Assembly: GCA_029942545.1 (NCBI GenBank)
Contig: GCA_029942545.1_4114.1
Length of the DNA stretch: 64,000 bases
From: a phage
Reading direction: 5' to 3' (one strand)
The position numbers were made by a program, and so were the translations under genes. Of the stretch, positions 3,662 to 59,180 are shown piece by piece; position 1 is the stretch's first letter; each line of letters begins with the position of its first letter. The notes below the pieces were generated by a model. The model saw only the letters and a list, made by a program, of their open reading frames with translations, did no database searches and was not told the DNA's origin.

Positions 3662-3678
3662 TAGAAGGAGTACAGCTT

Positions 3679-3771
3679 ATGCAAATGAATCCGATGATTA
3701 TTGTTTTAGCTGTACTTATGAACATTCATGCAATAGTAGAAGTATTAACGCAATCAGGAGTAATAAAATGA
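3679..3771 (+). CDS. small hydrophobic peptide (30 aa)
   Basis: RBS AGAAGGAG 8 nt upstream of ATG 3679; below track cutoff. Confidence 0.3.
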   Translation: MQMNPMIIVLAVLMNIHAIVEVLTQSGVIK

Positions 3772-3941
3772 TCCAAGTAGAATTATCAGTACTGAAAGAT
3801 CTGTTTTATCGGTTAGGTACTAATGGCGAGTATCCTAAAAGTGATACCGCAAAACTTTTTGTATCACTCGACTTATGGCAACGCGAACAATTAGTAATGT
3901 CCTGGCGTAAAGGTAAAGCAGATAGCGAGGTGAAAGCATGA
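3768..3941 (+). CDS. small hypothetical protein (57 aa)
   Basis: ATGA overlap with upstream ORF; contains RLGTNGEY, reminiscent of the family A motif. Confidence 0.4.
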   Translation: MIQVELSVLKDLFYRLGTNGEYPKSDTAKLFVSLDLWQREQLVMSWRKGKADSEVKA

Positions 3942-4087
3942 AAGAATTCTTATTCGAAGTAGTGTTTCAAGGTGTCGGTAGCAACCAACTGATTCGCTCA
4001 AGTGGTTACAATGTTAACCAGGCATGGAATAACATTAAACAAATGTACCCGAACGCTATCACCTATCGCAACCCGAAACAAGTTTAA
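3938..4087 (+). CDS. small hypothetical protein (49 aa)
   Basis: ATGA overlap; stop TAA 4085-4087; followed by cassette R copy 3. Confidence 0.4.
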   Translation: MKEFLFEVVFQGVGSNQLIRSSGYNVNQAWNNIKQMYPNAITYRNPKQV

Positions 4088-4095
4088 AAATAATT

Positions 4096-4263
4096 GAAAA
4101 AGGGATTGACTCCGGTCAGTCCCTTTGCTATTATATACGCATAGAAACAAATCAGCCCACAGGGTGCATAAATGTATCTATTATATGCTGGTGGCTAGTA
4201 CTATCAAGTACTGAAAACTATTTTATAAAAAGTACTTGCAAAGTATCACGATAAGCGTATAAT
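4096..4263 (+). repeat. intergenic cassette R, copy 3
   Basis: hairpin GGGATTGAC-TCCG-GTCAGTCCC 4102-4123 + T-rich; box AGCCCACAGGGTGCA 4154-4168; promoter TTGCAA-N16-TATAAT 4236-4263. Confidence 0.6.
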
Positions 4264-4351
4264 GTTTTACATCAGGACGGGGAACGAAATAAGTAACCCC
4301 GTTAAGTAGTCCAGGAGTAAGACATACGAAAACCTCCCCTGATAAAATAGT

Positions 4352-4379
4352 TTGACAATAGAAATTAAACGAGTATAAT
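4352..4379 (+). promoter_or_regulatory. sigma70-type promoter (TTGACA-N16-TATAAT)
   Basis: -35 4352-4357, -10 4374-4379. Confidence 0.55.
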
Positions 4380-4409
4380 ACTTACATCAACCACAAAGAG
4401 GAATACAAA

Positions 4410-4610
4410 ATGAAACATTTTACTTTCGGTGTAGTAGGCTTTACAGTATCCAGCGGCGTTTATAAATCAGAACGCGGTGCTAAAAATGCAGCAAGTCGGG
4501 CGTATGGTTCACAGCGTGACTTACAGGTCGGTTATATTAGTAACATTAATAACATGTTTATTCCTGTTGCACAGCGTAAAGCGGGTAACATGAAATGGGA
4601 AACAATTTGA
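4410..4610 (+). CDS. hypothetical protein (66 aa)
   Basis: ORF track; RBS AAGAGGAA. Confidence 0.6.
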   Translation: MKHFTFGVVGFTVSSGVYKSERGAKNAASRAYGSQRDLQVGYISNINNMFIPVAQRKAGNMKWETI

Positions 4611-4619
4611 TAAAATAGT

Positions 4620-4647
4620 TTGACAATAGTTTTTAGTACTGTATAAT
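4620..4647 (+). promoter_or_regulatory. sigma70-type promoter (TTGACA-N16-TATAAT)
   Basis: near-identical to promoter 979-1006. Confidence 0.6.
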
Positions 4648-4677
4648 AGTTTACATCTTAATTAATAAGGAAACATC

Positions 4678-4812
4678 ATGAAAGCAGCAAACAACACTAA
4701 AAAAGCAACCAATCCCCTGGCTGGCTGGAAGTTAGATTTATCCGATGAAGTGGTTTGCACAAATCGTAATGTAGTTGAAGCTGAAAAGAAATTACGAAAA
4801 GAAAACAAATAA
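4678..4812 (+). CDS. small hypothetical protein (44 aa)
   Basis: RBS TAAGGAAA before ATG 4678; promoter upstream; the overlapping minus-strand track ORF 4662-4988 is rejected. Confidence 0.4.
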   Translation: MKAANNTKKATNPLAGWKLDLSDEVVCTNRNVVEAEKKLRKENK

Positions 4813-4815
4813 GTA

Positions 4816-4843
4816 TTGACAAAGTATCTTAGTACTGTATAAT
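4816..4843 (+). promoter_or_regulatory. sigma70-type promoter (TTGACA-N16-TATAAT)
   Basis: -35 4816-4821, -10 4838-4843; hairpin GAGGGGAA/TTCCCCTC 4858-4876. Confidence 0.6.
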
Positions 4844-4899
4844 AGTTTACATCAAGTGAGGGGAATGGTTCCCCTCCTAACAAAAAGAGAGAAATTAAA

Positions 4900-5223
4900 A
4901 TGACTATGTTCCTTACCCAGAAAGTAGAAATGAAAATTGTAACTTCCTTTGACATTAAAGTTAATCGGTGGACTGATAGCCACGGCAATACTTACCACTC
5001 ATGCTACGTGTCTGCATTGATTGGTGACCGCTGGGAAGACCTGGGACATGAAACCTTTACTTACGGTTACGGTACACAAGGCGAATACACGGGCTTGGAG
5101 ATCATTAAAGAAACCGTTATAGGTTTCAACCCGAAAGAGAAAGTACTACACAGAATTGAGAAAGAGATCAACAAAGAAATTACAGTTCGATACTACGATG
5201 TAAAACGTAAGAAAGACATGTAA
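4900..5223 (+). CDS. hypothetical protein (107 aa)
   Basis: ORF track; RBS AAGAGAGAAA. Confidence 0.6.
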   Translation: MTMFLTQKVEMKIVTSFDIKVNRWTDSHGNTYHSCYVSALIGDRWEDLGHETFTYGYGTQGEYTGLEIIKETVIGFNPKEKVLHRIEKEINKEITVRYYDVKRKKDM

Positions 5224-5245
5224 TAGAATCCATTTAAAGTACTAT

Positions 5246-5274
5246 TTGACATTGCCCAGATAGTACTTTATAAT
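5246..5274 (+). promoter_or_regulatory. sigma70-type promoter (TTGACA-N17-TATAAT)
   Basis: -35 5246-5251, -10 5269-5274. Confidence 0.55.
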
Positions 5275-5322
5275 AGACTCTAACTTGTAGTACTAATTAA
5301 CTTAACTAATAGGATGTACACC

Positions 5323-5718
5323 ATGATTACTAAATTCTTCGCTACCCGTGAACAAGCTCGCATCGTTGCCCGTGAAGAAGGTGAAACATTTAAAGACATG
5401 GGCAAAGATGCACCGAAAGGACAACGCTGGGCGGTACAGTTCAAAGAGATCTCTGATATTGTGAATTCACCTGAGCCTGTACTTACAGCAGCAGAACTAA
5501 AGCAAGCTCAAGAACTGGCTGAAGTACTGAACGCTCAAGATGACTTTTTGAAAGGTTCTGATATTGAAGTTACAGTTAACGCAAATGCATGGACTCACGC
5601 GGATCACCTGGCAAACCTTAAGCGTCCAAGTGAACTGATTCGTAACCAGAAAGAGATCCGTCATGACCGTAAAGGAAACCGTGTAACAGTATACAGTAAA
5701 CGCCGCCAGGTTATCTAA
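5323..5718 (+). CDS. hypothetical protein (131 aa)
   Basis: AGGA 5311-5314 is 8 nt upstream of ATG 5323; track ATG 5314 sits too close to the RBS; alternative start 5314. Confidence 0.6.
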   Translation: MITKFFATREQARIVAREEGETFKDMGKDAPKGQRWAVQFKEISDIVNSPEPVLTAAELKQAQELAEVLNAQDDFLKGSDIEVTVNANAWTHADHLANLKRPSELIRNQKEIRHDRKGNRVTVYSKRRQVI

Positions 5719-8860: not shown

Positions 8861-8867
8861 AAACTAT

Positions 8868-8895
8868 TTGACAGTACTACAAGATAATGTATAAT
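8868..8895 (+). promoter_or_regulatory. sigma70-type promoter (TTGACA-N16-TATAAT)
   Basis: -35 8868-8873, -10 8890-8895. Confidence 0.55.
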
Positions 8896-8948
8896 GTTTT
8901 ACATAGAGCGGGGGAATAGTTCTCCCGCACCTTTAGGAGTAAAACATT

Positions 8949-9149
8949 ATGTCAATCGCTAACGAATTGGTTGCAGTACTGAATGAAGCAAAAGCCAACT
9001 GCATCGATGTACAGATCAAAGAGCTTGGCAATGGCTTGATCGGCTGTACTTGTACAGTGCAAACGGCTACCGATTATCGGGAAGTGGAATCACTCGAATC
9101 ACTGGTACGGTATATTAAAATCCTGGTAGAAGATTGGAGAATCATCTAA
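8949..9149 (+). CDS. hypothetical protein (66 aa)
   Basis: ORF track; RBS TAGGAG. Confidence 0.55.
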   Translation: MSIANELVAVLNEAKANCIDVQIKELGNGLIGCTCTVQTATDYREVESLESLVRYIKILVEDWRII

Positions 9150-9162
9150 CAAAAAAGAATAA

Positions 9163-9352
9163 AAAAAAGGGATTGACTCCGGTCAGTCCCTTTGCTATTA
9201 TATACGCATAGACAAAAACTAGCCCACAGGGTGCAGAGAAGTATCTATAAGATAGTTAATAACGGTGAGTAACTATCTGCTGGTGGATGTAATGCCAGTA
9301 CTCAAAACTATTTCAAAAAAGTATTGACAAAGTATATCAGTACTGAGATAAT
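9163..9352 (+). repeat. intergenic cassette R, copy 5
   Basis: hairpin GGGATTGAC-TCCG-GTCAGTCCC 9169-9190; box AGCCCACAGGGTGCA 9221-9235; promoter TTGACA-N17-GATAAT 9324-9352. Confidence 0.6.
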
Positions 9353-9406
9353 GTATCTCGTAGGGCGGCAATAGTGCAGCCCACCTCCAAAAGAGCGAGA
9401 TATAAA

Positions 9407-9622
9407 ATGGCGTTAACCAAACAAGAAATTATCGACCGTATCAAAGAGTCAACTGGCTGGTATGTTGGGGACCGTTTAATTGTTAAAGTTCTCGATTATT
9501 CAAATAATCCTCTTGCACCGGAACCAGTGGCATACAAATTATCCTGGATATCTGCGTTTAGCGGTAAGCGTGAAAGATGTGTGTACTATCCGAACACAGT
9601 CGGGCTACAGTTCTGTAAATAA
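9407..9622 (+). CDS. hypothetical protein (71 aa)
   Basis: ATG 9407 after leader; track start 9374 lies in the leader hairpin. Confidence 0.55.
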   Translation: MALTKQEIIDRIKESTGWYVGDRLIVKVLDYSNNPLAPEPVAYKLSWISAFSGKRERCVYYPNTVGLQFCK

Positions 9623-10540: not shown

Positions 10541-10564
10541 GCATTACACATCACCAAACATCAT

Positions 10565-10584
10565 AGGCCGCTCTCTAGCGGCCT
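10565..10584 (+). terminator. hairpin, possible terminator or 3' stabiliser
   Basis: AGGCCGCT-CTCT-AGCGGCCT perfect 8-bp stem; weak U tract. Confidence 0.4.
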
Positions 10585-10608
10585 TAACTATATCAGGAGG
10601 GCATACAT

Positions 10609-10818
10609 ATGTTCTATACAGTATACAGCGTTCTAGGTACGATTGCTGGCGTACATGATAATGTCAGTGATGCTATGCGTACAGTACTGCAACAGGTTCC
10701 ACTAAAGCCTAAGACCATTAAGCAGATGACAGCACGACTAACCAGGGCGACGGCTGGCGTGGAAGTATGGCAGGACTATGGGGATACACAGATAATCGTA
10801 AGCGTAACGAAGGATTAA
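10609..10818 (+). CDS. hypothetical protein (69 aa)
   Basis: ORF track; RBS AGGAGG. Confidence 0.55.
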   Translation: MFYTVYSVLGTIAGVHDNVSDAMRTVLQQVPLKPKTIKQMTARLTRATAGVEVWQDYGDTQIIVSVTKD

Positions 10819-11067
10819 TGCGTAAAAGGATTTAGTACTGATTCAGAAAAAAGTCAAGGCGTTTTTAAAATTATGCGTTAAAAAAATGCATAGGTAATCC
10901 CTTGACTTTTTTGAAATAAAAGGGATTGGACTATGGCAAAATGCGTAGGGGGCTAAAGGGCGGGTAACCTTAGCGACTTCGATAAAGGGGTATTACGAAT
11001 AAAATGTTATTGACTTTTTATATGAATCGTATAAAATATGATCGATAATAATTTTAAGGGAGTCCCT
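10817..11067 (+). promoter_or_regulatory. non-coding junction with iteron-like ATGCGT(A/T) repeats and a 13-bp inverted repeat
   Basis: ATGCGTA at 10818, 10941, 11068 and ATGCGTT at 10873; AAAAAAGTCAAGG 10847-10859 is the reverse complement of 10900-10912. Confidence 0.4.
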
Positions 11068-11880: not shown

Positions 11881-12089
11881 TTATATTAACACCTGAAGAA
11901 TATAAGAAACGTTTTAATTCTGTCCAGACTGAAATATTACTTATATACCTTTCAAATGCAGACCTTAACTTATCAAGGGCAATGGAGAAGGATTTACTTA
12001 TGGGTGCATTTTTGGATACAGACTTTCAGGTGTATTATGTAGGGGAATACTTAATTGCACTCCAGAATTACATTAGGAGTAAACTATGA
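11877..12089 (+). CDS. family A small paralog
   Basis: motif LDTDFQVYYV; ATGA overlap. Confidence 0.65.
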   Translation: MIILTPEEYKKRFNSVQTEILLIYLSNADLNLSRAMEKDLLMGAFLDTDFQVYYVGEYLIALQNYIRSKL

Positions 12090-34764: not shown

Positions 34765-35255
34765 TTACTACAGAATATGATTACGATGGTGTTTTAGAAT
34801 TTGCAGAAAATATCTATCGCATTGCAAAGGAGTTCAGAAGTCCTGACCCATTTGGTGGTATGTTCGAATACGATGAGTTTAGTTCATCCAAAGGAAGACT
34901 TGCGTTTACTAATGAAAGAGGTAATCAAATCTATGCCGAGTACTTTGATGACAATGACTTTCATTACAAAGCCGGATACATTTCATATTGCCCTGGGTCT
35001 GATTTGAAGATTAATATTGACAATTATAGAGAAGCAGTATTTGTTAAGTATGATGATTTAGTGTTCATGTCAGAGGAAATGTACTTTCAGGGTTCTTGTA
35101 TTCATGATGTAAAAGTACTTAATGCTATGTTATTTTATGGTGCACTACTTCATCATTACAAATACAAACAACGATTCTTTTTAGATTTAGTAGTATACTA
35201 TAAATGCGTGGATTATTTGAATGAAAAATACGACAACAATTCAGTACATGACTGA
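34761..35255 (+). CDS. family B paralog
   Basis: motif SEEMYFQGSCIHD; ATGA overlap. Confidence 0.65.
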   Translation: MITTEYDYDGVLEFAENIYRIAKEFRSPDPFGGMFEYDEFSSSKGRLAFTNERGNQIYAEYFDDNDFHYKAGYISYCPGSDLKINIDNYREAVFVKYDDLVFMSEEMYFQGSCIHDVKVLNAMLFYGALLHHYKYKQRFFLDLVVYYKCVDYLNEKYDNNSVHD

Positions 35256-35583
35256 TGGTACTGAATACTTTGTTTCAAGATATGTAATCAACCACAACCA
35301 TTATGTGACCTATATTCCAGAATACAATCAATTTTATATCCAGATTTATCAATATAATGGAAAGATAAATGATATATATTCAGAAATAAAAATCCCTGAT
35401 TATAGTACTTTATCAGAAGAGGAATTGTTTCAGCAGAGCACTATCAGTACTGAAGATGTGTACGAAATAATGGAATACCAGAAGGTACTTAAACATTTTC
35501 ATGAAGCAAATGATATACAAATCGATATTGTTAAACCGTGGTGTTACAATACATATGAGGTAAATTATGTTAGAAATGATTAA
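35221..35583 (+). CDS. family B paralog
   Basis: motif SEEELFQQSTIST. Confidence 0.65.
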   Translation: MKNTTTIQYMTDGTEYFVSRYVINHNHYVTYIPEYNQFYIQIYQYNGKINDIYSEIKIPDYSTLSEEELFQQSTISTEDVYEIMEYQKVLKHFHEANDIQIDIVKPWCYNTYEVNYVRND

Positions 35584-35980
35584 AATTATGCAACGTTGTG
35601 TTGTTGACCAACACGGGATATATGGATATCGTTTAAGTGCTCCTATTGACAAAAATAAAACAACCTATGTAAGCTATAATGCTGTACAAGGATTTGATAT
35701 ATTCATTAGTACTAATTATCAAATCAAACAAGCTAAAGATGTGTCTATAATGACCCCTGATGAGTTATTTCAGTACAGCTTAGTCTTTCCTACATGTATC
35801 GATTTACAACGTCTAGGAGCGATACAGAAGGTTTTACGCGAACATAAAGTACAACCCAATAAAGTCACACACATTCCAGAAACAATCTTCAAAACCATAG
35901 AAGTAGAAACTCCTGATTATATGTTAAGTGATGATGAGTACTACGAGAAACACTTCCCTGGTAAAGTTTGGAGAGACTAA
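35567..35980 (+). CDS. family B paralog
   Basis: motif TPDELFQYSLVFP. Confidence 0.65.
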   Translation: MLEMIKIMQRCVVDQHGIYGYRLSAPIDKNKTTYVSYNAVQGFDIFISTNYQIKQAKDVSIMTPDELFQYSLVFPTCIDLQRLGAIQKVLREHKVQPNKVTHIPETIFKTIEVETPDYMLSDDEYYEKHFPGKVWRD

Positions 35981-36471
35981 TGAACCGAAAGTACAGAGAA
36001 ACTATGAAGTTCGCTAGGGAGTGTTTAGAAGTGTTTGAGTTCATCAATGCTCATAAAGATTTACTCCATAGATACATTGCAATCAGTGAGACAGATGACC
36101 ATAGGTACATATGTTCTCGAATTCAAGATAAGATATATAAGATTGTGTTCTCGGAAACATACACAGATACATCTAATTCACTATATGATTTTGCACGTAC
36201 TGATTACGTTTCATACAAATCTTGGTCTGATAGTATTAAAATTGTGCACAAGCAAAATACATTTTATTCTTTTCTTACGGACATTTCCGAAGAAAGTTAC
36301 TTTCAAAACAGTTTAATTTATACAGAAAAAGAACTCAAAATGTTATATATTATGTCGTACTTTAAAAAGTACTGCAAATTTAATACATTATCTTTTGAGA
36401 TTTCTGCAATGAAAGTATTCATTAAAAATGTAAAAGAATTAAAGAGGGCTTTTAATGTACATAGAAAATGA
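35980..36471 (+). CDS. family B paralog
   Basis: motif SEESYFQNSLIYT; ATG 35980; track start 35968 is TTG. Confidence 0.6.
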   Translation: MNRKYRETMKFARECLEVFEFINAHKDLLHRYIAISETDDHRYICSRIQDKIYKIVFSETYTDTSNSLYDFARTDYVSYKSWSDSIKIVHKQNTFYSFLTDISEESYFQNSLIYTEKELKMLYIMSYFKKYCKFNTLSFEISAMKVFIKNVKELKRAFNVHRK

Positions 36472-36997
36472 GAATGTAAAATGCATTACTGAAATTTGTA
36501 TAAAATTAATGAAAATTTTCATTAACCCAAAATACAAAAAACGTTCATTACATCATAATATTGATGAGCATTGTACCATTAATATACTAGGTAGTATTCT
36601 TGATGTAAAATATGATGGTAGAATGTTATTTGGCATAAGAGAAGAGAAAATAGATGATGCATTCTTTTCCTGTAAAGATAAATTTGAACCTTCTGATTAT
36701 AAAGTAATTATTCGTGATGATAGCATCTACATTAGTAGTGATTATTCAAATTACTTCGATAAAATATACAATGAAAACGTTGACTACCATTATGAAATGA
36801 TAGATTTACCAGTAACAGACATTGATATGGAGAGAATCAAATTTTCATTATCAGATAATGAGTACTTAGGTATACAAACATATTATTCACTACAAGGAAA
36901 GATTCCACCTGCTATGTATATAAGGATTGAGATTGGTAATGTATTCAATGATAAGGTTATATCTATTGCTGATAAAATATTGAGGGTTGAATTATGA
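36455..36997 (+). CDS. hypothetical protein (180 aa), possibly divergent family B
   Basis: ORF track; motif not recognisable. Confidence 0.5.
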   Translation: MYIENENVKCITEICIKLMKIFINPKYKKRSLHHNIDEHCTINILGSILDVKYDGRMLFGIREEKIDDAFFSCKDKFEPSDYKVIIRDDSIYISSDYSNYFDKIYNENVDYHYEMIDLPVTDIDMERIKFSLSDNEYLGIQTYYSLQGKIPPAMYIRIEIGNVFNDKVISIADKILRVEL

Positions 36998-37557
36998 ATA
37001 TCAATGATTACCAATTTCATAGGCTTGAATTTCGTCATTGTGTTGCATTTGCAAAAACATTGATGTGCATCATTGACACTCTTTCATCCAAACAATTTCG
37101 TAAGGATAATGATTTATTTCTGAAAAAAGGTCGTGTAACATCAACCGATATCGGTATTGAACTATTTGTTGATATCAGTGTTGATACCGGAGACAGTACA
37201 AGGGTTGGTTGTATAGGTCATATTGGTACACATTGCTTCACATGGAATCCAAATACAAGTCAAGTACGAATTGATTATAGAAATTCACGTTGGGTTGATC
37301 TTAGTACTGAATCAGATTTAGAATCAGCTATGTTCCAGCTAAGTTTAATTCACAATCCTAATGAACTTCTTTACATTATTACTTTCAGTTATCTGTTACA
37401 AAACTACGATAATCCATCAGGATTTTTCATAGAATCAGATATAGATGAAATTATGGAAGAGATTCCAAGTTTAAAGAATATTCTCGAAGAAAAAGATTTC
37501 TATGAAGACTTCAGAGATTTATACGACATGCACTTGGAGTTATTTAAGAATGGATAA
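36994..37557 (+). CDS. family B paralog
   Basis: motif ESAMFQLSLIHN; ATGA overlap. Confidence 0.65.
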   Translation: MNINDYQFHRLEFRHCVAFAKTLMCIIDTLSSKQFRKDNDLFLKKGRVTSTDIGIELFVDISVDTGDSTRVGCIGHIGTHCFTWNPNTSQVRIDYRNSRWVDLSTESDLESAMFQLSLIHNPNELLYIITFSYLLQNYDNPSGFFIESDIDEIMEEIPSLKNILEEKDFYEDFRDLYDMHLELFKNG

Positions 37558-48131: not shown

Positions 48132-48986
48132 ATGAAACTTTATCTAATCGTTGACTACAATAAGGATTATGCTGGTAACTTCACCGAAGATTCGGATGGA
48201 TATTGCACATCGACTAATGTCAATGTACGTAGCAGTAGTGCTCATGAACATGAATCTTGTAAAAATCTAAAAGATTTTATCGCATACCGAGCATTTGAAA
48301 AGAACTTCTGCCGCAGTAGATATTCGAAGTTTGAGTACCCGTTAATTGATGTTCCTGATGATTTAATGTTCCAGTTAATGCTAACTGGAGTTCAAGATTA
48401 TGATTACATAGCATATAATCATATTACTAAGAAAATTTATATTGGTACATCATCACATGACACTTCTATGTATGCATCATGCCCAGATGATCGAATGAAT
48501 GATAGAAAATCATACTATAGTGGATCAGTTGGTTTAAATGATTCATTAAATAAAAATATATTCTTTGAGTATGTTTATGATTACCATCATGAGAAAAAAG
48601 AACGTGAAGATTACTGTATAGCAATTGATAGTACTAATGGGTATGAAGACGTGAAAGAAGCACTTATGCCGTACATTATTGAAAAGTACTACAAAGATTT
48701 TCAGTACTGTAGTAATTTTCTAATCAGAAATTCTATTATAATCGGTCGCCAATCTAGTGCATACTCTCAGTACTATAATGATTCACCAGTAGCATCGGCA
48801 AATGAAATGTGTGATATTTTACAAATTCCACGTGAAGATATGGCATTCATTTTTACATCTTTTATTGAAGATGATGAATTGTACGTTAAAAATAAACACC
48901 GTTTAATGCCAAGTAAGATTGAAATTATTAGATGCGTAAGCGTTGATATACTGACAAATTTTACTGAAAAAACAGAATATAACTGA
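48132..48986 (+). CDS. hypothetical protein (284 aa), possible distant family B relative
   Basis: ORF track; RBS GGAGA; weak DDLMFQLMLTG. Confidence 0.6.
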   Translation: MKLYLIVDYNKDYAGNFTEDSDGYCTSTNVNVRSSSAHEHESCKNLKDFIAYRAFEKNFCRSRYSKFEYPLIDVPDDLMFQLMLTGVQDYDYIAYNHITKKIYIGTSSHDTSMYASCPDDRMNDRKSYYSGSVGLNDSLNKNIFFEYVYDYHHEKKEREDYCIAIDSTNGYEDVKEALMPYIIEKYYKDFQYCSNFLIRNSIIIGRQSSAYSQYYNDSPVASANEMCDILQIPREDMAFIFTSFIEDDELYVKNKHRLMPSKIEIIRCVSVDILTNFTEKTEYN

Positions 48987-49015
48987 GACAAAGAATAAGT
49001 TAATGATATAATGTA

Positions 49016-49048
49016 AGGTGACAGCAGATGTTGTTGTCACCTTTTTTT
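49016..49048 (+). terminator. intrinsic terminator (or 5' hairpin of a downstream non-coding transcript)
   Basis: AGGTGACA ... TGTCACCT stem followed by T7; an extended -10 (TGATATAAT 49004-49012) sits just upstream. Confidence 0.7.
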
Positions 49049-49588
49049 AATCCTGAAAGGTTCCCATAAGGAAATGATTAAAAGCCTAATCCACTCGAAA
49101 ATGTAGAGGGTAGATGAGTAGTCCTTTCAGTACGAACAGCAGATGAAACCCGTTAGATGATGGCATAGTTTGAACCACTCACGGCAATGCGGCTGTATAA
49201 AGAACTCCAATAGGATAAAGAGAGTTCCTCGATAGACATATAAGGATCGCACCTTACCAATTATCTAAGGGAGATTTCATAAGAAATATGCGGTCGGAAT
49301 TATACAATATAGTTGCGTCCAAATTTTGTGAAATCAAATACAAGTACTGGTCATATGGTATTTGTATTATGTGTCGGGATGTTTAAGACCGACGACCGTT
49401 GCTACAAGAACCGCGATAGAGAGAAACAGAGCAACCCGCTTTCGTCTCGTAAGAGAATTCGTGATATGAACTATGTGAAGGCCACCAGCGTCAAACTTTT
49501 TTGTTCTTTCCCCTGCGGGGGGATGAAATATGCTCAAGCAAACCCCGTCAATATTAATTAAAAGAAAATAGTACTTGTAGAATTAGAC
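49049..49588 (+). other. GC-elevated non-coding island, candidate structured RNA or foreign insert
   Basis: ~540 bp with no convincing ORF, visibly richer in G+C than flanks; several short stems (e.g. GTCGG ... CCGAC); no tRNA T-loop seen. Confidence 0.35.
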
Positions 49589-50209
49589 ATGCGTAGCATG
49601 GTAATTCTACTGATGTTGATGAAATCAACGTCACGTATATTCATTGATGTTTCCATAGGAATAATGATGGCATTTATTAGAAAACAAAAAACTTTTACCT
49701 ATAAGACTTTGGATTTTGTTGATTGTGAAAACCAATTACAAGATGAAGATAACTTTACAGGATTTGTTGTTATTAAAGAAAAAGGATGCATTTCGTACAT
49801 AAAGGAATTACAGAACGGCATTGAAGTTACTTCAGTCAAATTACTTCCTACACAAAAACCAACAATATTAAAAGCACAGTATGGTAATTATTTCGAGGAA
49901 AGATATAGTAATAATTTAATAAGTGTTAAGGCTTATATTATAAAAGGAGAACTAGAAGGAGAATATAGAAAATACAACCCACAAGGAAAATGTGTTTGGG
50001 TTAAATACTTCAATTCAGGAAATGATGTAACATCTGAAATAATTGAGTTTTTAGGTTTAACATGTACCCCTGAAACTCTTCATGATTACAAATTTAATAC
50101 TGAAGAAGAGTTTAATCTGATGATGCGTTATGGTTCACATTTTAAATTTTTGTATGAATATAACATTGACAGTAGTACTTTTGATAAGATAGTACAGAAC
50201 TGTCTATAA
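49589..50209 (+). CDS. hypothetical protein (206 aa)
   Basis: ORF track; alternative start ATG 49664/49667 after AGGA; C-terminal region weakly repeat-like (GEYRKYNPQGKCVWVKYFNSGN). Confidence 0.5.
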   Translation: MRSMVILLMLMKSTSRIFIDVSIGIMMAFIRKQKTFTYKTLDFVDCENQLQDEDNFTGFVVIKEKGCISYIKELQNGIEVTSVKLLPTQKPTILKAQYGNYFEERYSNNLISVKAYIIKGELEGEYRKYNPQGKCVWVKYFNSGNDVTSEIIEFLGLTCTPETLHDYKFNTEEEFNLMMRYGSHFKFLYEYNIDSSTFDKIVQNCL

Positions 50210-50225
50210 CAAAAGGATTTATAAC

Positions 50226-50747
50226 ATGTCGAAGAAGGATACTTCGAACAAACATTCAGTACACTTCAGTACTGGTAAAGATAACTGGACAACTCCAAAA
50301 GATTTCTTTGAAGAGTTAGATGAGTTATGGGGATTTACGCTTGATGCTGCTTGTGTTGATGAGACTGCATTATGTGAGAATTATTTTACACCAAATGATG
50401 ATTCTCTTTCACAGGATTGGGGAAAGAATATAGTTTGGTTGAACCCTCCATATAGTGATTTGAAAACATGGTTATCTAAAGCAGTAGATGCGTATAATAA
50501 AGGGGCAACTGTATTAATTCTTGTACCATCAAGAACGGATACTATAGCTTTTCAGGATTATGCTGCGAAAGTTTGTGATTGTATTTGTTTTATTAAGGGA
50601 AGGTTACGATTTGGTATCCCAGAAGAACCAGAGAAGAAAACAGATTCAGCACCATTTCCTTCGTGTCTGATAGTACTAGATAAGTACTTAACCACTGCTA
50701 AAATCAATTATCTTAAATCTCTTGGATTGGTGATGAAGAATTTATGA
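50226..50747 (+). CDS. phage-type DNA N6-adenine methyltransferase
   Basis: WTTP ... FTLDAAC ... NYFT ... WLNPPYS, with NPPY catalytic motif; typical small phage MTase size. Confidence 0.75.
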   Translation: MSKKDTSNKHSVHFSTGKDNWTTPKDFFEELDELWGFTLDAACVDETALCENYFTPNDDSLSQDWGKNIVWLNPPYSDLKTWLSKAVDAYNKGATVLILVPSRTDTIAFQDYAAKVCDCICFIKGRLRFGIPEEPEKKTDSAPFPSCLIVLDKYLTTAKINYLKSLGLVMKNL

Positions 50748-58041: not shown

Positions 58042-59180
58042 CCCTTTTGCAAATATATGAAGATTTAATGCACTTATGTAATACAAACGATGCATTCTTT
58101 TATGTGGATCATAAAAGTCCTGCTGGTGGCACGTATCGTGTATTCAGTTATCGTCTAGCATCATACACTGATTTCATGCAACCAAATGCGTTGGAAACCC
58201 GTGGCTCTATGTGGGAAATTGATGAAGAAGGTGAAATGATACGTTGTGCAGCACGTACAATGAAAAAGTTCTTCAATGCTTACGAGAATCCTGCTACAAT
58301 GTTCCCTGCTAACACCACATGCGATGACATTGCGGTAGTGATGCCTAAGTTGGATGGTTCGATTATCAGTACTTACCGTGATAATGATGGTGAGATTCGT
58401 TGTAAATCACATACTGCATTGTATTCTGACCATGCGATTAACAGTACTCGACTTATTAACGAGAACCAGAATTTGTATCAGTACATCGACGAAGCGGAAC
58501 GTTTAGGTTACACAGTTAATATGGAGTATACAAGCCCAGAGTACCGAATTGTATTACCATATCAGGTAGAACAACTGTTTGTACTGAACGTTCGTCATCG
58601 TGTGAGTGGTGAGTTGCTATGTGGTAAAGCACTACGTGATAAGTTTCCATGTCTTGCACAGTACAGTACTAATATGACTGGAAAAGATATTCATCACACT
58701 TTTCCGGTACGAAATACCTTCCGTGAAAGCGTGGAGGAAGTTCATAAAATGCTTGATATTGAGGGTTTTGTGTGCATCCTAAATAATGGGACAATGTGTA
58801 AAATAAAGACTGACTGGTACAGTTCATTACATCTTACAAAAGATAGTATTATTATTGATTCTCATTTATATGAAGCAGTATTAAATGGTTCAAGTGATGA
58901 TTTAAAACAATTGTTCAGTACTGATGAATATGCTATGCAAAAGATATTAAGAATGGAACAATTGGTATTTTCGTGCTATAATGCATTACAAGATGAAGTA
59001 GAAAGCTTCGTCAAGGAACACAAGCACTTGGAGCGAAAGGAATTCGCAATGAAGGTTCAGGAGTGTTTAACTAATGAACTGAATCGTCAGGGCTTGGCCT
59101 TTGCAATGTATAACAATAAGAAAGTTGATTACAAAGAGACTCTTATAAAATACATGAAAATTGTACTAAAGGATTTTTAG
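58038..59180 (+). CDS. rnlA: RNA ligase 1 (T4 RnlA-like)
   Basis: 380 aa; N-terminus and nucleotidyltransferase lysine motif VMPKLDGS align with T4 Rnl1 as recalled (from memory, no search); conserved C-terminal WYSSLH-like region. Confidence 0.85.
   Translation: MTLLQIYEDLMHLCNTNDAFFYVDHKSPAGGTYRVFSYRLASYTDFMQPNALETRGSMWEIDEEGEMIRCAARTMKKFFNAYENPATMFPANTTCDDIAVVMPKLDGSIISTYRDNDGEIRCKSHTALYSDHAINSTRLINENQNLYQYIDEAERLGYTVNMEYTSPEYRIVLPYQVEQLFVLNVRHRVSGELLCGKALRDKFPCLAQYSTNMTGKDIHHTFPVRNTFRESVEEVHKMLDIEGFVCILNNGTMCKIKTDWYSSLHLTKDSIIIDSHLYEAVLNGSSDDLKQLFSTDEYAMQKILRMEQLVFSCYNALQDEVESFVKEHKHLERKEFAMKVQECLTNELNRQGLAFAMYNNKKVDYKETLIKYMKIVLKDF

Follow-up and report, generated by a model that had tools for sequence, protein, structure and literature searches.

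Evidence for a family of large, highly structured noncoding RNAs in Rak2-like jumbo phages and enterobacterial chromosomal islands

What does a phage genome keep in an interval of 540 nt that is richer in G+C than its surroundings and holds no convincing gene? We asked this of positions 49049 to 49588 of a stretch of 64,000 nt, here called the window, from contig GCA_029942545.1_4114.1 (assembly GCA_029942545.1). The window shares 99.6% identity with Escherichia phage UB and 95% with 121Q, and its sequence places it in an Asteriusvirus (121Q/UB-like) jumbo phage. Our answer is that the island is very probably paralogue A of a stand-alone gene family for a large, highly structured noncoding RNA. 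This answer is drawn from sequence, and there are no expression data for any member.

Results

Windowed comparison bore out the G+C elevation that a preliminary description had noted: 40% in the island against 29.7% on both sides (0.400 at 49049-49588 and 0.42 in the core, 49080-49550; 0.297 in each of the flanks, 48500-49048 and 49589-50140). Beyond position 12000, only 0.7% of 540-nt segments equal the island (z about 3). When segments from all of the window are counted, the island stands out less, with 4.3% of them equaling it (z = 1.9), owing to the higher G+C content of the first 11 kb. The same description had placed the island between a terminator and a methyltransferase operon. The terminator stands, but the first gene downstream encodes a 181-amino-acid protein of unknown function (phrog_16210; 49664-50209, + strand), and the methyltransferase gene, beginning at 50226, comes second. 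To judge from the PHROG profile and the ribosome-binding site, the 181-amino-acid gene probably does not begin at ATG 49589. ATG 49664 fits the family profile, since with this shorter start the match spans profile positions 10-189 of 191, and the AGGA at 49656-49659 suits it well. With the probable start at 49664, the noncoding stretch would run from about 49049 to 49663.

Four paralogous copies of the island are present in 121Q, all on the + strand in CDS-free gaps at 90.3, 192.8, 247.5, and 326.7 kb, and a covariance model of the family found exactly these four and nothing further in the window or in 121Q. Asteriusvirus records hold four copies, those of Mimasvirus, Eneladusvirus, 7t3-like phages, and CBB hold five, and RaK2-like phages hold at least two. 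The copies are spaced 54-112 kb apart and, in 121Q, GAP32, and BF, all lie on one strand regardless of local gene orientation; in the pEa_SNUABM_12 record, one copy is on the opposite strand. Orthologous copies hold their genomic position across genera: in 121Q, GAP32, BF, and an uncultivated phage, copy B has the EndoVII gene on one side and the baseplate hub gene on the other, and in both 121Q and RaK2, copy C comes after a gene for an RNA polymerase sigma factor. Only - strand genes adjoin the B copies, which argues that the RNA gene is stand-alone. The island is 100% identical in phages SHEFM2K, CRJP21, E9.1, and ECO103 4-12-1, whose flanks differ by about 12%; an 851-nt query that included 305 nt of flanking sequence gave 95.5-97.3% identity in the same four. 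An identical island between diverged flanks points to purifying selection. We also scanned with the pattern GACCGTN{14,22}TARNNNGAAAYMGRNNRACCCGC, which matches all known family members, and obtained 58 IMG/VR loci and 9 bacterial loci. One of the nine, Planctomycetaceae locus L089, had no nhmmer match and was set aside as a chance match.

Bacterial genomes, which the preliminary description had suggested searching, do carry full-length homologues. These homologues are chromosomal, each within a small integrative island, and occur in the Enterobacterales Serratia, Silvania, Enterobacter, Buttiauxella, and E. coli. They score 274-309 bits over their full length and adjoin tyrosine or serine integrases. 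A copy in E. coli that lay outside the seed alignment scored 116 bits. Besides the RNA, the bacterial islands hold an integrase and variable cargo. The 8-18 kb that were read contain no replication gene, and the gene next to the RNA converges on it. No copy was found on any of 72,556 plasmids by blastn in its distant mode.

Covariation carried the case for RNA structure. We used 52 nonredundant members (<95% identity) and a model of 16 helices with 75 base pairs and two pseudoknots. Helices were admitted if their canonical pairing was no lower than 75-88%, and they were tested afterward; they replaced a fold from RNAalifold with ribosum scoring on a 783-column alignment, which gave partly implausible long-range closures. 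Across the 52 members, 97.3% of cells were canonically paired, compared with 74% in shuffled and 39-45% in slid controls, and compensatory double changes occurred in 58 of the 75 pairs. The covariation score was 0.614, against 0.197 for shuffled and 0.08-0.11 for slid controls, and none of 500 shuffles attained 0.614. One alignment served both to derive the structure and to count its pairs, which inflates the paired percentage. However, this circularity does not generate double changes, and it does not touch the out-of-seed E. coli copy. The functional strand is the + strand: the frequent G-U pairs (e.g., UG in 43 of 52 and GU in 32 of 52) are compatible with that strand only. Thermodynamic folding of the window copy gave a minimum free energy no better than that of shuffles (z = -0.73 for the + strand and -0.01 for the - strand) and was uninformative. 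Of the possibilities raised in the preliminary description, a structured noncoding RNA gained strong support, from covariation over 75 base pairs that include two pseudoknots. What is conserved in the sequence is RNA secondary and tertiary structure, with at least 16 helices.

The predicted RNA is roughly 480 nt long, with a core at 49086-49470 and a 3' module that extends to about 49551; all features given here are on the + strand. A short 5' leader hairpin, P0 (UUCC/GGAA, 49062-49074), covaries by eye in columns 20-45 of alignment A4 and was not formally counted. Its variants include GACCTTG..CAAGG and GATAGGGG..CCCCTA; other phage copies have a longer version of this hairpin, and bacterial copies have none. 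P1 (49086-49113; strands 49086-88/49111-13 and 49094-96/49106-08, helices 1-2) has an invariant GAAA in its loop, is 92-94% paired, and shows double changes in five of six pairs. P2 (49118-49133, helix 3), preceded by a near-invariant GAUGAG, is 100% paired with a middle pair that is UA, AU, or CG. P3 (49136-40/49192-96) and P3a (49150-53/49181-84), which form helices 4-5 at 49136-49196, surround a variable insertion and contain the conserved segments GAAACCCGU and CACGGCAAUGCGGC; they are 100% paired, and five of their nine pairs show double changes. All five pairs of P4 (49202-49227, helices 6-7) covary. P5 (UAAGG/CCUUA, 49241-49256) covaries by eye in A4, reading UAGG/CCUA in GAP32, UGAG/CUCA in the L053 group, and CAGG/CCUG in Serratia; gaps in this part of the alignment kept it out of the formal count. 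A single-stranded AAGGGAG follows at 49267-49273. Alignments A3 and A4 show no variation in its first six nucleotides (225-230 in the numbering of the first sequence), and the final G is replaced by A or U in a few members. P6 (49273-49335; strands 49273-77/49331-35, helix 8), with covariation in five of five pairs, surrounds a movable module (about 49297-49328, UUAUACAAUAUAGUUGCGUCCAAAUUUUG) that is found within P6 in A-, B-, and C-type copies; D-type copies and others have it in the loop of P13.

The 3' part of the core contains both pseudoknots. P8 (49337-49368, helix 9) is a 13-bp hairpin in which all 12 counted pairs covary, and the nucleotides of its loop at 49350-49356 pair with 49464-49470 to form PK1 (helix 10, seven pairs). 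PK1 is 99.7% paired, has double changes in six of seven pairs, and is retained in the out-of-seed E. coli island copy. After hairpin P9 (49372-49394, helix 11; covariation in four of five pairs), PK2 (49398-49435, helix 12) joins GUUGC (49398-49402) to GCAAC (49431-49435) of the 15-nt P12 loop. It is 100% paired, and three of five pairs show double changes, one being CG in 32 members and UA in 19. P11 (49412-16/49459-63) is built around P12 (49419-23/49439-43, loop AAACAGAGCAACCCG) and P13 (49446-48/49453-55); together these helices (13-15, 49412-49463) are 97-100% paired, with covariation in 11 of 13 pairs. The two predicted pseudoknots make a compact 3' domain. Beyond it, hairpin P14 (UCCCC-UGCG-GGGGG, 49509-49522, helix 16) is 99% paired but without compensatory proof, because its changes are only between G-C and G-U. 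The conserved part of the family ends with the 3' tail CAAACCCCGUCAA (49539-49551), whose columns in A4 are invariant or nearly so. A long-range pairing of GAUGAG (about 49115) with CUCGUCA of the tail was rejected, since by eye the variants GUUGAG and CCUUCA are uncompensated. We also rejected a promoter within P14 and the tail: sigma-70 -35 and -10 elements would have to be separated by 21 nt, a MotA-box-like reading is off-spaced, and the B copies have no downstream gene. A hammerhead-like CUGAUGA was discarded because the actual motif is CAGAUGAG and Rfam ribozyme models gave no match.

We then considered whether the island might be a gene or a gene remnant. That it codes for protein, through the 82-amino-acid open reading frame at 49313-49561, or is decaying foreign DNA can be set aside with near certainty. 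The reading frame is present in the window copy, and the G+C content is unlike that of the flanks. However, the frame starts with TTG, no ribosome-binding site was seen in the preliminary description, and the frame is not conserved: in 50 of the 52 members, the homologous segment has at least one stop, typically two to four, in every frame. The preliminary description had found no convincing open reading frame here, had named a conserved protein-coding homologue as what would overturn its view, and had listed a horizontally acquired remnant among its candidates. The first of these points is upheld, no such homologue appeared across the 52 members, and the remnant is rejected. The island keeps a syntenic position in five or more phage genera, purifying selection acts on it more strongly than on the neighboring genes, its sequence is more conserved than theirs, and its base pairs are kept by compensatory changes. 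On this sequence evidence, the RNA is not translated.

The RNA family is new and absent from Rfam 15. At the gathering threshold there were zero matches across the whole window, and at E<=10 the region 48900-49750 gave only three chance-level matches (E 2.4-9.1) to unrelated small RNAs. The same relaxed search gave no consistent match on 12 other phage copies and none on the RNA of the nine bacterial loci. Families without a match include GOLLD, ROOL, HEARO, OLE, raiA, RNase P, group I and II introns, pRNA, 6S, and RNAI, and ARAGORN found no tRNA or tmRNA gene in the window. Full-text literature searches found no description of the RNA, and two of the four noncoding RNAs that RNA-seq has defined in the related phage PA5oct, lncRNA002 and lncRNA004, were not homologous by nhmmer --max or by the covariance model with filters off. 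Short segments, ACAGAGCAACCCGCUUUCG and AGUGCGAACAGCA..GAAACCCG, resemble parts of E. coli M1 RNA. An RNase P RNA was nevertheless rejected: these segments form the P12 loop with PK2 and P3a rather than a P4-like helix, and no RNase P model matched at E<=10. Group I and group II introns were excluded since every copy lies between genes and has a promoter of its own, and neither intron model (Intron_gpI, Intron_gpII) matched, and a ColE1-type RNA II plasmid origin was excluded by the plasmid search above and the missing RNAI match.

Next, we examined the ends of the transcript. A consensus scan recovered the two elements earlier placed at the 5' edge, the extended -10 at 49004-49012 and the hairpin. 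The promoter (48983-49012) combines a -35-like CTGAGA/GAGACA with the extended -10 TGATATAAT and matches at 10 of 12 positions with the TG. TGnTATAAT lies at equal distance in all four 121Q paralogues and in nearly all of 18 inspected family members; in the window it occurs 12 times on the + strand and not at all on the - strand. The hairpin (49015-49043), with a T-run to 49050, is the terminator of the upstream 284-amino-acid gene and begins 3-5 nt after the -10, which places the start site of the RNA probably inside the terminator stem. The same order of promoter and hairpin, with different stem sequences, is found in the A-type copies of GAP32, XbC2, and 7t3. We infer that host RNA polymerase would initiate at the TGATATAAT promoter, just within that stem. 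The copies of GAP32, BF, and Yen9-04 have a -35 of TGAAAC/TGGAAC and a -10 of TGGTATAAT, whereas 121Q-type copies have TGAGAC/GGGACA instead. In phage CBB, the TGAAAC(-35)/TATAAT promoter class has been reported upstream of DNA-synthesis genes (PMC5259590). Its expression timing is unmeasured, so whether the RNA copies belong to a middle class is unsettled.

At the 3' side, a conserved CCACCAGCGUCAAA and a U-run (49484-49503; alignments A3 and A4) mark the site at which B-, D-, and E-type paralogues have a covarying intrinsic-terminator hairpin. This hairpin is absent from the window copy. Without a terminator of its own, the window transcript probably reads through P14 and the tail into two accessory hairpins at 49577-49629. 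One, GTAGAATTA..TAATTCTAC (49577-49610), encloses CATGC-GTA-GCATG, and the other is GTTGAT-GAA-ATCAAC (49615-49629). Long hairpins with C-GNA-G triloops also lie 3' of the core in GAP32, XbC2, 7t3, RaK2, and others. The accessory hairpins may extend the transcript at its 3' end or may instead form the 5' untranslated region of the next gene; their membership in the RNA is inferred.

Discussion

How might such an RNA act? We tentatively favor, at a little under even confidence, a trans-acting folded RNA that binds a conserved partner or catalyzes a reaction. This is an inference, as no partner, ligand, or activity is known. The pseudoknotted core would present invariant unpaired motifs, namely, GAAA, GAUGAG, AAGGGAG, GACCGUUG, and GAAAC.G..CAACCCGC. 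Because the same RNA occurs in virulent jumbo phages and in chromosomal islands, we propose that the partner is a host or helper-phage component. The double-pseudoknot core might also be a large ribozyme of a new kind or an assembly of RNA alone; neither is excluded. Two observations sit uneasily with a trans-acting RNA. In three paralogue types an intrinsic terminator precedes P14 and the tail, yet both are conserved, which a purely trans-acting RNA leaves unexplained. An origin also accounts at least equally well for the even copy spacing, the shared strand, and the presence in gene-poor islands.

A cis-acting leader, that is, a long 5' untranslated region controlling the genes from 49664 on, including the methyltransferase gene, by termination/antitermination or ligand sensing, is very improbable. 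The window copy has no terminator before the next gene, only the hairpins at 49577-49629, and the fixed terminator position in B, D, and E types is attenuator-like. However, the B copies have no co-oriented downstream gene in 121Q, GAP32, BF, and Munch, the next gene in the bacterial islands converges on the RNA, downstream genes vary among paralogues, and about 480 nt with two pseudoknots far exceeds known leaders. The main rival to a trans-acting RNA is instead a transcription-primed replication origin, which we regard as possible though unlikely. The RNA would be a structured preprimer, as are ColE1 RNA II and the T4 ori(uvsY)/ori(34) transcripts, and its 3' part (the terminator/U-run site, P14 with its C4/G6 stem, and the tail) would persist as an RNA-DNA hybrid from which the leading strand is primed. 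The four to five copies would be the phage origins. Each bacterial island would be a satellite that has copied one of them and is replicated by the helper and packaged as concatemers. The preliminary suggestion of a replication or packaging element is thus not excluded and survives in this form, without direct proof.

Several features fit an origin: the spacing of 54-112 kb on one strand in 121Q, GAP32, and BF (one pEa_SNUABM_12 copy being the exception), the conservation of P14 and the tail even past the terminator, as for a DNA-level or hybrid-forming element, and islands that lack a replication gene in the 8-18 kb read. Kreuzer and Alberts reportedly showed in the 1980s that plasmids with a T4 origin replicate and are packaged upon T4 infection, and ColE1 R-loop formation relies on contact between a G-run and a C-run. 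In addition, the GAP32, BF, and Yen9-04 copies use the promoter class that precedes the CBB DNA-synthesis genes (PMC5259590), and minimal satellites packaged as concatemers (PICMI) exist (PMC10803314). The island RNA shares with the ColE1 and T4 transcripts a length of several hundred nucleotides, a sigma-70-type promoter, a fold that matters, and a G-run/C-run near the 3' end, and T4-type genomes likewise have several dispersed sites. However, the invariant unpaired nucleotides and the double pseudoknot exceed the known needs of hybrid formation, the tertiary structure is far more conserved than in those transcripts, and the intrinsic terminator of B, D, and E types, which lies upstream of the proposed hybrid site, would abort the primer; most paralogues contain such an internal terminator. 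There is no copy on 72,556 plasmids and no antisense partner of the Rfam RNAI type, and neither replication data nor a mapping of replication starts stands behind the claim. No change in GC or AT skew occurs at any of the four 121Q sites, which is weak evidence because skew there follows transcription. In its fullest form, this reading would make the RNA the specificity element of jumbo-phage origins, a pseudoknotted preprimer at four to five sites per 350-kb genome, and the islands a new class of minimal satellites, headful-packaged by Rak2-like phages; this is doubtful but not excluded.

Large bacterial and phage RNAs with complex folds proven by covariation are rare (RNase P, group I and II introns, tmRNA, OLE, GOLLD, ROOL, HEARO, and raiA), and every established class has so far opened new biochemistry. 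Here, an RNA of about 0.5 kb is kept as four to five nonredundant copies, or about 2.5 kb of genome, throughout the Rak2-like jumbo phages, in which most genes still lack a functional assignment (83% in phAPEC6). For cultivable phages (121Q, PBECO4, phAPEC6, GAP32, and RaK2) and for sequenced strains that carry the islands, there are now exact coordinates, a secondary structure tested by covariation, and a pattern with which to search. That small chromosomal islands share the RNA points to an RNA-centered phage-satellite or phage-defense relationship. The bacterial islands resemble PICMIs and other minimal satellites in their size of roughly 5-11 kb and in having an integrase, regulators, and variable, partly defense-like cargo, and dependence on a virulent helper is conceivable, although there are no infection data. 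PICMIs differ in that they encode AlpA and a primase, and a large RNA has not been reported for them (PMC10803314).

The phi29 pRNA, too, is a structured RNA encoded by a phage, in which a loop-loop pairing covaries, and its five motor copies recall the five paralogues. The island RNA is about three times longer and does not match the Rfam pRNA model. We know of no RNA requirement for T4-type terminases. The PK1 strands are complementary within each molecule, and sequence alone cannot separate pairing in cis from homo-oligomeric pairing; since they match within and not between paralogues, a hetero-ring is not indicated. In kind, a trans-acting island RNA would most resemble the large phage-associated RNAs GOLLD and ROOL (RF01998 and RF03087). 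These are stand-alone RNAs of 0.5-0.8 kb with many covarying helices, pseudoknots, and no known function, carried by phages or mobile DNA and unlinked to any single protein gene. Both are reported to form multimers, as seen by cryo-EM (bioRxiv 10.1101/2024.12.08.627333). The island RNA matches neither model in sequence or structure. GOLLD and ROOL belong to Lactobacillales and to rumen and lake organisms, whereas the island RNA belongs to jumbo phages of Enterobacterales and forms a family of four to five diverged paralogues per genome.

The island is G+C rich and contains no protein-coding gene

The preliminary description had marked 49049-49588 as a G+C-rich stretch without a convincing ORF. 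The G+C elevation was confirmed in sliding 540-nt windows: the island has 40.0% G+C (42% in its core, 49080-49550) versus 29.7% in the 550 nt flanking it on each side and 32.1% in the 30- to 64-kb part of the window. Only 0.7% of the 540-nt windows past position 12000 reach this value (z of about 3). The z is lower, 1.9, with the whole window as the reference, because the first 11 kb is richer in G+C. At about 58117-58660 lies the sole other 540-nt stretch past 12 kb that is as rich in G+C as the island (0.42).

The only sizeable ORF in the island, 49313-49561, begins at TTG and would encode 82 aa. In 50 of 52 relatives, the homologous segment has stops in every frame. Thus, this ORF is not conserved, and the conserved protein-coding gene that would have overturned the earlier description was not found among the 52 relatives. 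The possibility that the island is coding or junk DNA is refuted.

The protein begun at ATG 49664 matches phrog_16210 from profile position 10, and AGGA lies 4 nt upstream of this ATG. Therefore, the noncoding gap extends over about 49049-49663. ATG 49589 is unlikely to be a gene start; judged from sequence, the ORF listed from it and the 121Q annotation of gp416, whose start corresponds to ATG 49598, probably both begin too far upstream. The extra N terminus from the early start (49589-49663) overlaps conserved RNA hairpins.

Four other stretches of 500 to 1200 nt (1541-2417, 3662-4899, 8861-9373, and 10541-11037) have no ORF of 70 aa or more on the + strand, and G+C in some of them is 36-41%. 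All four fall where the 121Q annotation has many tiny genes, and the RNA family described below has no match in them.

The island encodes a structured RNA with a pseudoknotted core

A structured noncoding RNA had been among the candidates proposed for the island, and covariation bore this out. In an 18-member alignment, 43 of 65 RNAalifold pairs had compensatory changes. Scans added 58 IMG/VR loci and 8 bacterial loci to the family. The set comprises 79 distinct sequences, which cluster into 54 groups at 94% identity and 22 at 78%. We aligned 52 representatives, chose helices by canonical pairing, and then counted. The resulting structure has 75 pairs in 16 helices, two pseudoknots among them, and 58 of the pairs show changes on both sides. 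Standard pairs fill 97.3% of 3757 cells, compared with 74.1% when partners were shuffled and 39-45% when they were slid by 1-3 columns. The covariation score is 0.614 versus 0.197 (shuffled) and 0.08-0.11 (slid), and none of 500 shuffles reached the observed value on any measure. That the structure was picked on the alignment on which it was counted favors the paired percentage; double changes do not arise in this way. A copy from E. coli that was not in the seed is free of this bias; it scores 116 bits and keeps the first pseudoknot, PK1. The abundant G-U pairs fit the + strand only. Single-sequence folding energy of the window copy is undistinctive (z = -0.73).

P8 is a 13-bp hairpin, and PK1 joins 49350-56 in its loop with 49464-70 (7 bp, 99.7% paired, six covarying). 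It reads CAUAU/AUAUG in the window copy, UGUAU/AUACA in paralogue B, and UCGAAU/AUUCGA in paralogue D. The second pseudoknot, PK2, pairs GUUGC (49398-402) with GCAAC (49431-35) in the 15-nt loop of P12 and is 100% paired; one position is CG in 32 members and UA in 19. Invariant unpaired motifs lie between the helices: GAAA (P1 loop), GAUGAG, GAAACCCGU, CACGGCAAUGCGGC, GAUAGA, AAGGGAG, GACCGUUG, and GAAAC.G..CAACCCGC. A module of roughly 30 nt, UUUGUACAAUAUAGAUCCGUCCAAAAUUUG, is found at one peripheral site in some paralogues and at a second such site in others. Large ribozymes are known to swap peripheral elements in this way.

The covariance-model search called for by the preliminary description identified no known family. 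Rfam returned nothing for the whole window at gathering thresholds and only three chance-level matches to small RNAs in the island region at an E value of ≤10. There was no consistent Rfam match on twelve other phage copies and none on the RNA of the bacterial copies, and ARAGORN found no tRNA or tmRNA. Segments resembling RNase P RNA are part of different helices in this family, and none of the RNase P models gave a match. We did not find the RNA described in full-text literature searches. The finding is real, and the family forms a new class among large structured RNAs.

Transcription signals and the 3' part

The extended -10 element TGATATAAT (49004-49012) and the T-run hairpin (49015-49050) reported at the 5' edge are real. 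TGnTATAAT precedes nearly every copy that we inspected. It occurs 12 times on the + strand of the window (13111, 20280, 34246, 45539, 47297, 49004, 50980, 52937, 53254, 55088, 58974, and 62585) and is absent from the - strand, the expectation being about 5 for either strand; these motifs are, as putative promoters, a strand-specific set. In the GAP32, BF, and Yen9-04 copies, a TGAAAC/TGGAAC -35 element also lies 17 nt upstream. By their motifs, the latter promoters are of the "divergent RpoD-like" class of phage CBB, which was found mainly upstream of DNA synthesis genes (PMC5259590). In A-type copies, to which the window copy belongs, the terminator hairpin of the upstream gene starts 3-5 nt after the -10 element. 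We therefore infer that the RNA start, about 7 nt past the -10 element, would fall inside the terminator stem.

In the B, D, and fifth paralogue types, a covarying hairpin with U6-8 directly follows the conserved CAUCGUCAGA, where a U-run (49498-49503) is all that the window copy has. Every member has P14, a C4/G6 hairpin, and the tail CAAAnCnCGUCA (49509-49551, + strand). Their conservation downstream of a terminator in the B, D, and fifth types is unexplained. After the RNA core, at 49577-49629, are hairpins with C-GAA-G or C-GUA-G triloops; these and a ACGAAGUGA-like motif recur after the core in many copies (loci L009-L022). Hairpins of the GCGAAGC type are unusually stable as DNA.

The RNA gene is retained in several copies across jumbo phages

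Identity in this region is 99.6% with Escherichia phage UB and about 95% with 121Q, PBECO4, and further jumbo phages of Asteriusvirus, whose genomes are about 350 kb. In 121Q, the island lies between gp415 and gp416, in a gap without an annotated feature; gp417 is annotated as a DNA methyltransferase. By blastn, the island alone matched 71 phage records, at four places per genome in Asteriusvirus and five in Mimasvirus (GAP32 and XbC2), Eneladusvirus (BF, Yen9-04, and pEa_SNUABM), 7t3/Munch-like phages, and CBB. RaK2/K64-1-like phages gave shorter matches.

The four 121Q copies are all on the + strand and within CDS-free gaps. Copy A (192.8 kb) is the counterpart of the window copy, copy B (326.7 kb) lies between EndoVII and a small gene adjoining the baseplate hub, with all neighbors on the - strand, copy C (90.3 kb) directly follows an RNA polymerase sigma factor gene, and copy D is at 247.5 kb. 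Searched with a 3'-domain covariance model, 121Q yielded exactly these four and the window one copy. Copy B also adjoins EndoVII in GAP32, BF, and an uncultivated phage, and in RaK2, too, the sigma factor gene precedes copy C. The copy positions are orthologous across genera; therefore, the duplications are old and each paralogue has been retained. A gap of roughly 2 kb without an annotated CDS at 135194-137161 of the 121Q record (35194-37161 of the fetched locus L004) has no match to the family.

Selection on the island is directly visible. SHEFM2K, CRJP21, E9.1, and ECO103 4-12-1 carry the 546-nt island with 100% identity to the window; when 305 nt of flanking coding sequence is included (851-nt query), identity in these phages is only 95.5-97.3%. 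Thus, all of the roughly 23-38 differences are in the flanks.

Homologues reside in small bacterial islands

The family is common to Rak2-like jumbo phages and rare enterobacterial islands. Full-length bacterial members score 274-309 bits. Carriers are Serratia fonticola GTA-SR07 (complete chromosome), Serratia sp. 2723, Silvania hatchlandensis, Enterobacter chinensis, Enterobacteriaceae RIT714, a Buttiauxella MAG, an Enterobacteriaceae MAG, and a 2.8-kb contig labeled Clostridium. Among complete E. coli genomes, 2 of 5,426 have a copy, and we found none among 72,556 plasmids. The bacterial copies group with the copy that one phage lineage, XaC1/L032, has at position B.

In four loci, a large serine recombinase is followed 390-680 nt downstream by the RNA; in two more, a tyrosine integrase takes its place. 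Also next to the RNA are a CI-type HTH/S24 repressor and a Ner-like protein. S. fonticola differs in having two ParB/RepB-like proteins as the neighbors, adjoining a duplicated rof gene. The near-identical rof copies (87 aa; 4775-5038 and 5227-5490 of chromosomal locus L088) suggest an attachment site that duplicates rof. In E. coli LR-29-1, the island (NZ_AP027515, locus L092, 4959-15303) lies between ffs and ybaA and contains a tyrosine integrase disrupted by IS3, the RNA (at about 9000-9560, within an unannotated 1.4-kb gap), the candidate defense genes PDC-M45A and PDC-M45C with DUF4326, and a small recombinase. The flanks of the bacterial loci are ordinary chromosomal genes (tilS, thiM/thiD, cysQ, and ffs). 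Therefore, these loci are small integrative islands rather than jumbo prophages. In several copies, a 9- to 11-bp inverted repeat overlaps the -35/spacer region of the RNA promoter (just upstream of the RNA in bacterial loci L085, L086, and L088, e.g., GGGTAATGA..TCATTACCC and AAGATAAATTA..TAATTTATCTT). We infer that the neighboring CI-like repressor may use these repeats as its operator.

How the RNA might act

These data show a stand-alone, strand-specific, nontranslated, multicopy gene family whose product is an RNA of roughly 0.5 kb with a pseudoknotted core; there are no expression data for any member. We tentatively favor a folded RNA that would act in trans as a binding scaffold or catalyst, because it has dense invariant unpaired nucleotides and tertiary pairings, as do the large phage-associated RNAs of the GOLLD/ROOL type. 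Binding and catalysis are themselves inferred.

Alternatively, the RNA could be a structured preprimer at a replication origin, which we consider possible but rather unlikely. Such a role would fit the presence of four to five copies spaced evenly along one strand, the promoter class in common with replication genes, and the conserved 3' DNA/RNA element. Plasmids with a T4 origin exploit the replisome and headful packaging of the helper phage, and the gene-poor islands could do likewise; PICMI satellites exploit their helper's packaging (PMC10803314). However, the internal terminators, the lack of a skew shift at the 121Q copy sites, and a structure more sophisticated than hybrid formation is known to need all speak against an origin. 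That the RNA is a cis-acting leader is very improbable, being disfavored by the B copies and by the island copies.

Several GenBank annotations (JP4, E9.1, SHEFM2K, WPEC3/5, and SD-*_S* phages) place 4-6 "hypothetical protein" CDS on the RNA gene. These are most likely false gene calls.
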